The notes under the pieces are model-generated. The model was not told the DNA's origin. It was given only the letters and a program-made list of their open reading frames with translations, and searched no databases. This document shows positions 1,926-8,600 of a stretch of DNA of 10,451 nt, piece by piece. Source of the DNA: a virus. Its lineage: Duplodnaviria > Heunggongvirae > Uroviricota > Caudoviricetes. Made by a program: the position numbers and the translations under genes. The stretch lies in IMG/VR virus record IMGVR_UViG_3300026560_000023; one strand, given 5' to 3'. Numbering within the stretch: position 1 is the stretch's first letter; each line of letters starts with the position of its first letter.

Positions 1926-4400
1926 ATGGGACTTAGGATATATTCAGACGTCACGCTGCATGGTCATAAGTTAAACGCTACCGTCTACGAAAATGTTGGC
2001 GGGGGTACTGGCAGCGAAGGGACTGATGACTATGGTAACAGTTACGATAACAAGAGAACCTGGAAAGTCCCAGATGGAGAGAAGACCTGGATTATGCCAG
2101 GAATCTCTGGAGACGCAGAGAGCGATTACTGGGTCGAACTGAGGCAACAATATCAAGGCTCTGGTCCCGAACCCGAAGTAGATAAATTCATGCTGGACGT
2201 TCCAGCAGCGAGTGAAATCGTTATTTTCTATGGGGAGGACCCGACACTCATAGAAGGAGAGCCCCGGACCGCAGAAGACAAGAGTCTTTTCTGGGATACA
2301 GACGTAGACTGGGGGCAGTCTCAAGCACAATCAAACGTCATGTATGGGGATGATGCTCAGTTCAATCCATGGACTGAGACACAAGACCTTTCCAGGGAGC
2401 GATGGTATTTCGGAGCGAGATATAACGGAACTTCGGACGAAATGAACTTTGAAGGAGACGTTGATGAAATTCGTCTCTTTGATGAACCTCTTTCAGACCT
2501 CGACATCTACGCTACCGAACAAACGTCTAAAGGCAGTAATGGAATTCCCCTCACAGATGAGACCATTGTTGATGATGGCGGAATACATCGTTATAGCATG
2601 GATAATGAGGACATTGATTCTGGAATCATTAAAGACACGTGGGGAGCGCAAGATGCTACGATGGGCACCGGGATAACCACTGGAGTCCAAGGAATTTCTA
2701 AGTCGGAGGCTATCAGCTTTGACGGGTCTGATAACATCACTACAAACTGGGTCCCATCATTTGGAACGGGGGACTTTTCTGTCTCTATGTGGGTCAAGCA
2801 AGATGGTTGGAGCGATGATACGTTCGCTGCTACATACAATACGAACAGTGAAAGTACTGGGTTTATCTGTGAATACTATTCAGGGAATCTAAGATTTTGG
2901 ATTGAAAGTTCCGATGACCTTCAAGTATCTGCGAATATTCCTACAGAACAATGGGTCCATCTCGCATTCGTTCGTCGGAATGGAACGCAATATATCTATA
3001 TGGATAACACACTTATAGGGTCTCAAAATTCTACTAATAGCGCGGATACTTCTTCAGACCCCTTTGAACTCGGTAGCCGGGGAGGAGCATCGCAAGGCAG
3101 AGTATTAACTGGGGAGATGGACGAAGTGAGGGTTTACGATAAAGGACTTACAGAAACCGAGGTAGAAAATCTTTATGTCTACGAAGGCCCGGTAGGCCTT
3201 GCCCGGTACGAAGTAGACAATGTTTCTGGTAGCACCCTCCCAGATTCCTGGAATAATTACGATGGTACCATAACAGGAGCAACCGTCGTTTCCGGTGGTG
3301 CTCCAGATACAACAGACTTCTTGAGTTTCGATGGAGATGACTATGTGGATATTGGCGACGGCCTGCCAATACAAAAGGATTTCACAATCTCTGCTAACAT
3401 CAGGTGGGATGGAACAGATAGAGGATACGTATTCAACGGAGAATTGAACGGGAGCGAGTCTGATTTCCAGCTGTTGGTTGATGGCAGTGGAGACGTTCAA
3501 TGGAAAATAAAAGAGAGGGATGGAGTCGGAGATATTACCACATCCTATTCCCTCGACTCAAACACGTGGTATCATATAACAGCTGTTTCAGACGCGTTCA
3601 GCCAAGAACTGAGATTATACATCGACGGGGTTAAGCAGAAAACCTCAAAGGTAATAGGGTCTTCGAGAAATTCCTATAACGGTCTCGAAGGGTCTGTGAG
3701 CCTCGGTTATCCAAGTGAAGATGAAAATGGAAGCAACCTCTGGGCATATTATCCTCTGGGCGAAGAATCGGGTTCCATCGCAGTAGACGTAACAAATAAT
3801 AAGTATGATGGAACGTACTTAGATGCTAACCTCGGTTCAAACGGGATATTAAGCCAACCATGTCCTACATTTGATGGGATAGATGACGGGATAGACCTTC
3901 CATCTGGATTGGATTTCACCGGAGAATCTGCCATTACTGTCTCTTGCTGGTTCAAAGTAGAGGCAGGCGTTCTTGGAGGGAGCAACACGTTCCATATGGT
4001 AGGAGACGAAGGAAATAAAACGTTCATTTTAAGATGGGAGAATGGGATGTTCGAGTTTATAATCCACGATGGCTCTACATGGCAACAAAACGTCGGATAT
4101 AACAACAATCCTACGACTGGAATATGGCATCATATAGCCGGAGTATATGACGGGTCTGACTTGATATTCTACTACGATGGAGAAGAAGTAGATAGACGTC
4201 AGGGGATAGACTCCAACCTCGGAGGGTTCGGGTCAGCAGCTCCAGCTATCGGTTATAGAAGACTTGAGGATGACCGGCATTGGGATGGAGAACTTGGACA
4301 CATCCGGTTGTATAATAGAGCCTTGTCATCTAATGAGGTATTCGAGGACCTCTATGATGTCACTAAGGGTTATATAACTACAGACTCACGACTATTATAG
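1926..4400 (+). CDS. LamG-like / concanavalin-A-like jelly-roll multi-domain protein (824 aa); putative viral adhesin or tail/fibre glycan-binding protein
   Basis: Repeated LamG signatures SFDG.D, F(S/T)VS.W.K, W.H.A.V, Y.DG and G..DEVR.Y...L...E...LY. Complete domains at ~2583-3176 and ~3738-4355, a C-truncated domain at ~3198-3674 and an orphan C-terminal fragment at ~2382-2510. Confidence 0.88.
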   Translation: MGLRIYSDVTLHGHKLNATVYENVGGGTGSEGTDDYGNSYDNKRTWKVPDGEKTWIMPGISGDAESDYWVELRQQYQGSGPEPEVDKFMLDVPAASEIVIFYGEDPTLIEGEPRTAEDKSLFWDTDVDWGQSQAQSNVMYGDDAQFNPWTETQDLSRERWYFGARYNGTSDEMNFEGDVDEIRLFDEPLSDLDIYATEQTSKGSNGIPLTDETIVDDGGIHRYSMDNEDIDSGIIKDTWGAQDATMGTGITTGVQGISKSEAISFDGSDNITTNWVPSFGTGDFSVSMWVKQDGWSDDTFAATYNTNSESTGFICEYYSGNLRFWIESSDDLQVSANIPTEQWVHLAFVRRNGTQYIYMDNTLIGSQNSTNSADTSSDPFELGSRGGASQGRVLTGEMDEVRVYDKGLTETEVENLYVYEGPVGLARYEVDNVSGSTLPDSWNNYDGTITGATVVSGGAPDTTDFLSFDGDDYVDIGDGLPIQKDFTISANIRWDGTDRGYVFNGELNGSESDFQLLVDGSGDVQWKIKERDGVGDITTSYSLDSNTWYHITAVSDAFSQELRLYIDGVKQKTSKVIGSSRNSYNGLEGSVSLGYPSEDENGSNLWAYYPLGEESGSIAVDVTNNKYDGTYLDANLGSNGILSQPCPTFDGIDDGIDLPSGLDFTGESAITVSCWFKVEAGVLGGSNTFHMVGDEGNKTFILRWENGMFEFIIHDGSTWQQNVGYNNNPTTGIWHHIAGVYDGSDLIFYYDGEEVDRRQGIDSNLGGFGSAAPAIGYRRLEDDRHWDGELGHIRLYNRALSSNEVFEDLYDVTKGYITTDSRLL

Positions 4401-5662: not shown

Positions 5663-8600
5663 ATGGTTAATCAGGCTCAAATAAGATACGATTGCTCCCT
5701 AAATGGGTGCGAGGCGTCTATGACCGTCTACGCGGATACAAATAACGACGGGCAGCCTGAAAACCAGGAAACGTTCCAGTTGAGAGATGGACAAAATACT
5801 ACTCAACTATACAAGATAGACTGGAACGTCGGGACGAGATATTATTCCGAGATAAATCTGGAAACAGACGACGTTACGAAGTCCCCGGTTATTCACGAGG
5901 TCGAAATAGAACGGGGAATCACAACGGATACCAGAGGAATAGAGATACGCACCAAGGCTCAACTAAACGATGGGAGTATCTCTCTGAACATATACGAGGA
6001 TTCCAAGACGTATGATAGAATAAAGAAAGACTCCTTCGACGTCCCCGAAGGAGAGGTCATTACCTATATTTACAACTACGACGTTGAGCCTGGTAATGAG
6101 TTCTGGGTAGAACCCGAGATAGAAGTAGATTCTCTTACATCTAAGCCTCCAGTCTTAGAATACGTTAGAATACTTCCATACCCAGATATTGGATTCGTCA
6201 GAGCAGATATAACTGAAGCGTCTGCCTCTACAAAATTCGGGTTCCCATCGAATCTTACAACGGCTGCCAATGCAATAACGAAGGATTCCGAAGGCAACAA
6301 AATAACTGCTGTAGGAAACGTCACCCTCCAGACAGCTACCGGGAGAAAGGTAGCGATAGGAGAAGCCGATATACTCGATAGGATAGCAGTTCCTCTCGGC
6401 GCTACGGCAGAGACTGCGAGATTCGCCCCCGGTTCATTGCTCGATGCGAGCGCTGCGCCGCAGACGGGTATCTTGCTCGCATTAGGGGATAAGCCTTTAG
6501 GAGATATTTCGCCTCTTGGAGCGAGAGCCAGCGGCCTTGGAGTTGCCTGTGATATACAATCAGGGGATGCTTCGGGACTGGAAGCTACGGTGACAAATCA
6601 AACGGTCCGGCCCGTCGGAATAACGGCGAAGCAAGCAGATGGTTCTCCGTTAGAAGGATTCCCGTCTGCTCTTGGCAGATTTGTACTCGGAGAGAAAACG
6701 TCTGTTGTAAGTACAACGACAGAAGGATTCCCGTCCGGGATTGCATCCCGTCCAGACCTACTACCAGCAGACGCCATACCCTTCAGAGGAGACGGGGATA
6801 CCTCGCAAACGGTCGAAATATCTCCAACGGTTGCCGAATCTACAGCTCTCGTTGGCGGGATAGATATAGAACTGGACAAGAAGGATGTCATTGCGATTCC
6901 CAAGACTCCAACAACCATAATCCAGTTGGGATTGGAGTCTAAACAAGCAACGGGTACGGGCGTTCAAGCTATAGGAACGGACGTTCTATATGAGTCGATA
7001 GAGGGAATCAAAGAGATAGTAGATGCAACGCCCCTTACAGGTGGGTCTCAAAACATAACCTCTGGAGCGGATATAACATCCGCTAACGCTGGTCCGTTTG
7101 ATGGGCTGCTCACAAGCTCTGTCCAAGCAGATATTTACAATGCAACTCAAGCTACCGTTACTCCGCTCCGGGTAAACAAAGGCAAGCTGACCTCCGTCAC
7201 CGGGACGGGCGTAGAAGTAGTTGGAGGAATAGGCCAGACCTCTGATAGCATAATCACGGAGGCAACAGCCTATACGACAATCACGGGCAAGAAGACTATC
7301 GTAGAGGCCAGTCCCCTCACTACAGTAATCAGAGCATACGCGGATGGGGAGGTAACATCTGCTAACGGTGATGCTCTGCCTCCTGTAGTTGGACGAGTCA
7401 AAGATTCCACGGCATCGCCAATCATCGGTGAGGGCAGAGGTGTAGCTGCGACTCAAGCTCTCATAACTCAAGCCAACGTACTTCTTGAAACTGGGTCTAA
7501 GAATATTCGGACAGCGGTAGTTGACGTTACAGAGGCTGATACAGATTCCATAGAAGGATTCCAGAGAACTGCGTTCCCTACTCAAGCAAACATAGTAGGG
7601 TTCTTAACTGCGACTACGAAGTTCAAAGCAGAAATCACTCAAGCGTATGGAAATACCGGACTTGCACGGTCGCCGAGCGAATCTTCAAGGGTTAGTGCAA
7701 ACGCCACTCCACTAACACCAGATGTTGAAACGACCACTTCTGCAGTTATTTCTGTCACAACCTCTAACGTTTCAACGGATGAAGCGTTTAGATTCCTCTC
7801 TGGAAAAATAACAGAAGCTACATCTCCTAACCAATTTGAGGCAAATGCTCCTACTATCGGAGTCATCGCCAATAAACAACAAGCGTCTGGAACTGGCGTA
7901 GTTCCTCGTAACTGCGTTGTTGACATGGCTCCTCTCGGAGACGATGATAGGACGGAGGTCATTGCTTCTAACCCTCCGATTCCACCACAGGGGAGAGATA
8001 CTGTAACCGCCGGAGATGTAAGCACCTTTGAGACCGGGCCAAGCCAAGTAACAGTCAATACAAAAGGATTCCATAGGGTATCTAATCTTTCAGACGATGA
8101 CCCTGATACCGCTCCTGAATACGAAGGAGAGCCTGTAAAATGTAAGATTTATCAGGGCTATGACGAGGATGATAATTACTACTATTACACGGACCTCGTC
8201 TACGCTGGAACTGATGAATCCGTAATGAATCCAGACATTGGTTGCGGTCCTCTGCAGGACGGGGAGTCTGGATACCTTAAAGAAGGACCTGTCGGGGATA
8301 GCTTTGGAGCCAATCCGAAGACGGCTCGCATGTCAGCGGTTACAGACGTTGTAGATGTAAAACAAGCATCCGCTAACCCCGTGGATGTAGAAGGAGAAAT
8401 CGGTCGGGTCTGGGGACCGAAAGCATTTGGAACAGCATTAGATGCTCGTGGTCTCTCCGTTAAGGTCCCTGGAAATGTATCTAAGCAGGTCGCTACAGGC
8501 TCGGCTCTCGAACCCGGAATAGACCTTTCAACCGCAGATAGTGTTACTGAGGCCAATGTTATTACTGGGGTTGAAGGAACAGACCTTCCGTGGGAATTGG

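Follow-up and report, generated by a model that had tools for sequence, protein, structure and literature searches.

The ORF5 gene product and its parts

We analyzed a stretch of DNA of 10,451 nucleotides (IMG/VR record IMGVR_UViG_3300026560_000023), hereafter called the window, which comes from an uncultured tailed virus of salt lakes that probably infects a haloarchaeon. All the long open reading frames (ORFs) of the window are on the + strand, in the order four small ORFs, ORF5 (1926-4400, 824 amino acids, aa), ORF6 (419 aa), and ORF7 (1583 aa), and every ORF product is strongly acidic, with isoelectric points (pI) from 4.0 to 4.9. The subject of this work is ORF5 (pI 4.1), most likely a tail-fiber or receptor-binding-type protein rich in laminin G (LamG) domains, in which one LamG domain appears to be split and circularly permuted around another, complete one. 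An initial annotation made from the sequence alone had placed at 2382-3674, which does correspond to aa 153-583 of this ORF, an orphan C-terminal LamG fragment, a full LamG, and then a LamG lacking just that fragment. The parts distinguished in the protein, with the three larger LamG units numbered L1 to L3, are the following.

1926..4400, + strand: ORF5, 824 aa, acidic LamG-rich protein of the tail-fiber/receptor-binding type
1926..2255, + strand: N-terminal domain (N-domain), aa 1-~110; presumed virion-docking domain, common to ORF7 and other halovirus-like N termini
2274..2384, + strand: left half of the interrupted pre-LamG linker, aa 117-153, EDKSLFWDTDVDWGQSQ...NPWTETQ; from the linker profile and BLAST colinearity with P0073 15-139
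2385..2525, + strand: orphan LamG C-terminal piece, aa 154-200, with the "IG" strand, the G-D-x-D-E-I-R-L-F strand, and the closing helix
2526..2573, + strand: interdomain linker, aa 201-216, with low model confidence at 204-211
2574..3185, + strand: L1, complete LamG, aa 217-420, nested between both pieces of the permuted domain
3186..3689, + strand: L2, LamG in which the last two strands and the helix are missing, aa 421-588; the profile match stops at aa 581-585
3690..3731, + strand: right half of the interrupted linker, aa 589-602, GSVSLGYPSEDENG; matched by the linker profile and 86% identical in P0005
3732..4397, + strand: L3, the C-terminal LamG (complete), aa 603-824; equivalent in position to the only LamG after the linker in the uninterrupted relatives

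Two complementary LamG pieces

With the whole of ORF5 as query, Pfam returned Laminin_G_3 (PF13385) three times, at 227 bits. We also scanned the protein in pieces, taking the Pfam gathering score of 27.6 bits as a reference. L1 (aa 266-413, profile positions 2-150, 86.9 bits) and L3 (aa 650-805, positions 1-150, 92.4 bits) are each covered by one contiguous stretch spanning the whole profile. This is not the case for L2, which scores well above the gathering value (aa 469-581, 62.3 bits) and matches positions 2-112 only. The orphan fragment (aa 154-194) matches positions 113-150, i.e., the last quarter of the profile and nothing else, with 17 bits (E value, 0.007), under the gathering score when taken alone. 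The break is located between positions 112 and 113, and the segment 113-150 that L2 lacks sits 275 residues upstream. Since this coverage of the profile is not contiguous, L2 plus the fragment make up a permuted, noncanonical member of Laminin_G_3. The three elements of the initial annotation (a C-terminal segment at aa ~153-195, a complete LamG at aa ~220-417, and a LamG without that segment at aa ~425-583) were thus all recovered, whereas the spacing that it had given for the joined and the intact domain (~19 versus ~17 aa) was not reproduced residue by residue, and the profile coordinates carry the same point.

A more sensitive description was obtained with our own hidden Markov model (HMM) of 210 positions, built from 121 complete LamG domains of database matches. 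The fragment (aa 155-198) corresponds to positions 164-204 of this model (25.9 bits) and L2 (aa 426-585) to positions 6-167. When L2 and the fragment were joined in silico, the product gave a single uninterrupted match, from position 6 to 203, with 113.5 bits, compared to 122 for L1 and 136 for L3, so that the re-joined sequence reads as a contiguous LamG, as the initial annotation had anticipated. In the alignment with proteins carrying tandem LamG domains, ORF5 shows a gap in L2 exactly where F.G.IDEVRIYNRALS..EI..LY is expected, and the fragment aligns to that C-terminal segment of the other tandem domains. Complementary pieces on either side of a whole domain were seen only in the clade of P0001, P0004, and P0005, out of ca. 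80 LamG proteins collected.

A different origin could be imagined for the two pieces, namely, that they decayed independently. The fragment would then be the relic of a first LamG, whose N-terminal part was lost or diverged into aa 1-153, and L2 would have lost its C terminus separately, with no complementation between them. The score of the fragment alone, below the Pfam gathering value, would suit a relic, and the break lies in an interstrand loop, a place tolerant of deletions. However, both breakpoints agree within ca. 3 of the 210 profile positions, a coincidence to which we give a chance of ca. 3% for two independent breaks (our own estimate). Together with the linker, conservation, and structure data described below, this makes independent decay improbable.

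An interrupted linker and relatives without the insert

The sequences flanking the LamG pieces had been read in the initial annotation as a single interrupted linker. We found this linker uninterrupted in five relatives, P0073, P0065, P0070, P0081, and gp36 of Haloarcula hispanica tailed virus 1 (HHTV-1; AGM11291.1, L005:4528-7113, annotated as "hypothetical protein, Laminin G domain"), with the consensus W.T..DW..QS...T(V/I)(E/Q).G(Y/F)...L.AY.PLDE.SG. In P0073, P0065, and P0070, the same N-domain as in ORF5 is followed by W.T..DW..QS...T(V/L)E(K/Q)GY, 8 to 12 residues, L.AY.PLDE.SG, and then a LamG, while P0081 has the same contiguous linker element followed by a LamG. The version of gp36, SWGEASDWDAATSEQG...TIQLGFP...GAYFPLDEDSG, also precedes a LamG, although the N-terminal region of this protein differs. 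All five have the context of a tailed-virus structural module, and unlike ORF5, their linker is intact and there is no out-of-register cassette. Because HHTV-1 gp36 shares the linker of the metagenomic relatives, we consider linker plus LamG to be a module conserved among the tail proteins of haloarchaeal viruses.

The junctions could be mapped by BLAST in P0073, whose residues 15-139 match ORF5 aa 13-153 and residues 140-293 match aa 590-743, so that the two matches flank the insert. A linker HMM (70 positions) built from the five uninterrupted linkers matches ORF5 exactly twice, at aa 117-144 (positions 4-31) and aa 589-619 (positions 39-68, 19.7 bits). In a shuffle test of the left half, the real segment scored 12.1 bits, versus a maximum of 8.9 for the shuffled ones (1,944 scored of 2,000 shuffles). 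HMM positions 32-38 thus mark the split, and small indels occur there among the relatives as well, as in a loop. As the right match starts at aa 589, the GSVSLGY that comes after L2 belongs to the host linker and not to L2. Since the relatives have the flanking linker uninterrupted, the ca. 435 residues in between (aa ~154-588) appear as an insertion of exactly two LamG units in shifted register, in frame, and of nearly the size (~430 aa) that had been proposed from the sequence.

These data speak against the independent decay of the two pieces, as aa 117-153 and 589-619 together make up a single linker, which the five relatives have in contiguous form. The same can be said of the N terminus. 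An exhaustive profile-free search with aa 1-215 as query gave two separate sets of matches. In the first, aa 4-~110 match the N termini of P0063, P0065, P0069, P0070, P0073, and P0077 (P0061, P0064, and P0068 carry repeated copies of this domain); in the second, aa 153-200 align with LamG C-terminal ends. Therefore, aa 1-~110 constitute an independent domain and not the lost N-terminal part of a LamG, and this domain is found at the N terminus of proteins without a subsequent LamG remnant. Neither Pfam nor PHROGs has a family for aa 1-152.

The post-linker LamG of the relatives has its best match in L3 in three of four cases, with 67 bits for P0065, 38.5 for P0073, and 73 for P0081, versus 29/16, 30/36, and 65/53 bits, respectively, against re-joined L2/L1. 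L1 and re-joined L2 are, in turn, each other's best match (58.9 bits) and have 35 to 47 bits to L3. Although the margins are modest, these similarities fit L3 being the resident domain and L1 and L2 immigrants.

Conservation of the arrangement and assembly checks

The odd domain order might simply be an assembly artifact, i.e., a chimera or a misjoined contig, given that the window is metagenomic and that repeated domains can mislead assemblers. Nevertheless, P0005, a full-length homologue from a different run with 64% identity, shows its parts in the same order within a single open frame, and P0004, also full length (98% identity), comes from a third run. P0060, which is a fragment, carries the left junction too. 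In three of the four runs examined, single Logan contigs run across both junctions, and neither alternative joints nor a form without the cassette was seen in those four runs. Furthermore, the identity among the three LamG units is only ca. 25%, a divergence far too great for an assembler to be misled, so repeat-induced misassembly is implausible. The initial annotation had left the possibility of a chimera to be checked, and with this agreement between a diverged homologue and independent assemblies, we give it practically no weight.

The comparison with P0005 also shows the two pieces to be well preserved. There is no indel in the fragment, in L2, or in the linker halves, which at 64% overall identity is difficult to reconcile with two decaying remnants. 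Within the fragment, the motif residues G163, G177, D178, D180, E181, R183, F185, L189, I194, and Y195 are invariant between both proteins.

Predicted structure of the split domain

The first alignments for the full-length fold, made with MAFFT (A2-A6), were dropped; the LamG pieces were stacked on one domain or smeared over the N-domain. Instead, we used an alignment (A7) in which the pieces were cut in the register of the cassette. As A7 gave only three sequences for the N-domain and L3, these two parts were modeled poorly, and the full-length AlphaFold2 prediction had a mean predicted local distance difference test score (pLDDT) of 68. The fragment, on the other hand, is predicted with strands at 158-162 and 176-185 and a helix at 191-201, with a pLDDT of 84 to 88. 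Residues 102-153, just upstream, do not build a confident domain with it, since their pLDDT is below 50; folding of the fragment with its own upstream residues was thus not seen. Nor is L2 completed from downstream, where aa 589-619 are the conserved pre-LamG linker. In a deletion construct cut at aa 420 (without L2 and L3) and predicted at the same alignment depth, both strands of the fragment disappeared and the pLDDT of aa 161-190 dropped to 60 to 64, while L1 was unchanged. This loss of predicted structure upon removal of L2 is again contrary to what would be expected if the pieces were unrelated relics.

We also predicted L2 (aa 418-590) and the fragment (aa 150-215) as two separate chains. 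The score was 0.72, and that of the best control was 0.01. Of 80 solved complexes, 58 attain the mark used for such scores, as do 2 of 110 mismatched pairs; these counts apply here only roughly, since our prediction used our own alignments. Three runs share at least 88% of the contacts, with a partner pLDDT of at least 66. The tightest contacts are those of aa 183-185 with 487-490 and 426-428, of aa 177-179 with 466-468 and 491-493, and of aa 161-162 with 474. The predicted strand G177-F185 is located between the first strand of L2 (425-428) and its FTISANIRW strand (486-493). In an intact LamG, it is the last strand that occupies that place between those two strands. The initial annotation had suggested that the fragment packs into the sheet of aa ~425-583, giving a permuted jelly roll with a whole LamG looped out of it. 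Profile coordinates and structure prediction both favor this arrangement, for which the fold is a predicted one.

The model of L1 resembles domain 4 of the arabinanase AbnA (5ho2; Z score of 24.4, root mean square deviation of 2.0, 191 residues) and the lectin-like HCN domains of clostridial neurotoxins (Z score of ca. 21). The two-sheet jelly-roll fold is thus indicated for L1 by structural match and for L2 plus the fragment by the predictions described above. The likeness of L1 to the carbohydrate-binding domain of an arabinanase agrees with a putative binding of glycans. A structural search with the whole model gave L1-type matches only and says nothing about the fragment.

The predicted docking of the fragment as a chain of its own opens another possibility. 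The insert would be the same, but the fragment would complete the L2 of a neighboring subunit, in a strand-exchange clasp holding together an oligomeric (e.g., trimeric) fiber. Nested L1 would then be a swinging arm, and a donor-strand or domain-swap clasp would have been made in one out-of-register insertion. Tailed-virus fibers are generally oligomeric, frequently with intertwined chains, and the distance from the fragment to L2 (ca. 225 residues) together with the flexible linkers at aa 201-216 and 420-424 would allow such an exchange. Still, the monomeric full-length model already provides the strands of the fragment with high confidence, and the first and last strands of L1 adjoin, which permits closure within one chain without strain. 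We regard a clasp between subunits as unlikely, if less so than independent decay.

Proposed origin of the permuted domain

At the level of sequence, it is very probable that ORF5 carries an out-of-register insert of two LamG units in a conserved linker. For the complete explanation, which includes the completion of L2 by the fragment of the same chain, we estimate a probability of roughly 70%. The ancestral layout would be the one still present in the relatives, an N-terminal docking domain, a linker of ca. 45 residues, and one LamG. In the lineage of ORF5, a stretch of ca. 435 residues (aa ~154-588) would have entered the variable loop of the linker. This insert may be an excerpt of a tandem LamG array, two units long and displaced in register by roughly three quarters of a unit, containing the last ca. 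45 residues of one unit, the whole of L1, and the first ca. 165 residues of the next unit (L2). The leading piece would provide L2 with its two missing strands and helix, so that a LamG in circularly permuted order is formed and L1 loops out at the point where the N and C termini of a LamG normally meet. As the excerpt starts and stops at the same point of the fold, the ends of the insert can meet, and it would close on itself. It would enter and leave the host linker at one place, with linker and L3 remaining intact, and the product might be a compact head with three lectin-like domains instead of one.

The initial annotation had considered a circular intermediate. A circular donor would give the same product, although a linear out-of-register excerpt suffices and circularization is not required. 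The origin from a tandem array is what we infer from the arrangement of the parts. Head-to-tail LamG arrays of 3 to 9 units are common among the database matches, and in-register excerpts of such arrays align colinearly with aa 161-583. One contig (L003:1515-17853, that of P0006) has three giant LamG-array proteins, of 1395, 1395, and 2447 aa, in genes located beside a 23S_rRNA_IVP-like gene and a Y1 transposase. Long tandem LamG arrays like these could be an example of the type of donor.

Several points weigh against this reading. The full-length prediction is of mediocre quality, given its mean pLDDT of 68 and the values under 50 at residues 102-153 and 577-629, and the packing of the fragment within it is deduced from the pLDDT, the secondary structure, and the two-chain prediction. 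Such a complex prediction indicates compatibility only and does not distinguish between packing within one chain and between chains. In addition, halves of a split domain tend to pass it through their likeness to solved LamG structures. The match of the left linker half is weak (6.1 bits). The donor array was not traced, with L1 and L2 only ca. 25 to 30% identical to anything outside the clade, and the direction of the change (insertion here versus loss in all the relatives) rests on parsimony.

Comparison with other permuted domains

Permutation and nesting are already known as ways of building proteins, and ORF5 does not open a new class. The closest precedent is swaposin, the insert of plant aspartic proteinases. 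It is a permuted saposin that derives from the prosaposin repeat and has been explained as an out-of-register excerpt of tandem repeats, in which the C-terminal part of one unit is followed by the N-terminal part of the next (PMC3320104). As in swaposin, the permuted domain of ORF5 is within another protein, and the excerpt would come from an array out of register; the C-terminal part precedes the N-terminal one with complementary profile coordinates, and homologues of the host protein are uninterrupted. The differences are that the ORF5 domain is a (predicted) LamG jelly roll and not a four-helix saposin, that the excerpt is two units long with a complete unit nested between the parts, and that the host site is the linker of a virus fiber protein.

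LamG_3 belongs, by its Pfam description, to the concanavalin A-like lectin/glucanase superfamily. Concanavalin A itself is a natural circular permutation with respect to favin and other legume lectins (PMC3320104). In its case, the permutation takes place after translation, by cleavage and ligation, whereas in ORF5 the permuted order is encoded by the gene, the break lies elsewhere in the fold, and a guest domain is nested.

Gene-level permutation of LamG_3 was also found in the large family of P0058 (one of our LamG database matches) and its relatives P0085-P0202, bacterial membrane proteins of ca. 460 aa with a single permuted domain and transmembrane-rich flanks. In P0058, HMM positions 115-204 (aa 114-203) come directly before positions 2-98 (aa 216-308). 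There are 928 relatives at an E value of ≤1e-3, and the permuted order is present in 89 of the best 119; in the sources, they are named only as "Concanavalin A-like lectin/glucanases superfamily." Here, too, the C-terminal part precedes the N-terminal part, but the break is at HMM ~100-115 (164-167 in ORF5), the permuted domain holds no guest, and the proteins belong to cells and not to viruses. Given that this family is permuted as well, permutation of LamG is recurrent. A full-text literature search retrieved no paper on circularly permuted LamG domains in viruses.

What distinguishes ORF5 is that a LamG is nested as a guest with the footprint of the tandem array retained, that the host is the linker of a virus fiber, and that the interrupted and uninterrupted forms are both available, one of the latter from a cultured virus. 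The state before (five relatives with an intact linker) and the state after (two diverged copies of the cassette) are both preserved. Since a whole unit sits between the complementary pieces, the insert would still reveal its out-of-register lift from a tandem array, and ORF5 is thus a clean example from nature of how one recombination event can produce both a circular permutation and a nested domain. It would provide a virus fiber with a route from one to three lectin-like domains while the existing parts are left undisturbed, and it could serve as a natural template for self-closing insertable binding modules.

Genomic context and distribution

ORF5 can be considered a protein of the tail module because of its neighbors in related genomes. 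A near-identical contig (L002) has upstream a gene of 610 aa with a faint Prophage_tail match, and in HHTV-1, the ORF5-related gp36 directly follows the annotated tape measure gene. By likeness to other lectin-like LamG domains, ORF5 may bind a receptor at the host surface and have a role in host range, and the added LamG domains might bind glycans there. No near nucleotide match to the window was found among deposited phage genomes, and the protein search of known phages gave distant LamG matches and HHTV-1 gp36, nothing else. In metagenomes, the stretch 2200-3900 was present (at least 87% of sampled words) in 24 salt-lake and lake-water runs from 24 studies among the matches listed, one of which is possibly the source sample.

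ORF7 starts with two weak copies of the ORF5 N-domain, at aa 6-64 and 92-171 (window 5663-6180). This domain of ca. 100 aa is widespread in acidic metagenomic proteins, either N-terminal or in tandem (P0061, P0063, P0064, P0065, P0068, P0069, P0070, P0073, and P0077 among them), and is probably a common virion-docking domain.

Sequence variation within ORF5

Compared to its counterpart in the near-identical contig (L002:4563-7037), ORF5 has 99.2% nucleotide identity and 17 codon differences, 15 nonsynonymous and 2 synonymous. Nine of them are in L3 and four plus one synonymous in L1, with none in L2 or the linker halves. Between P0001 and P0005, L1 is the most diverged part (45% identity versus 64 to 77% elsewhere). 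This distribution hints at diversifying change in L1 and L3, with numbers too small for significance (15 versus 2 codons; binomial estimate, P of ca. 0.16). In three of the four runs examined, many contigs of 46 to 66 bases with alternative letters map to window positions 2176-2262, at the end of the N-domain (aa ~84-112), which suggests a hot spot of strain microdiversity. Separately, one run (X11) has an in-frame deletion of 3 bases at position 3100 of the window, inside L1.

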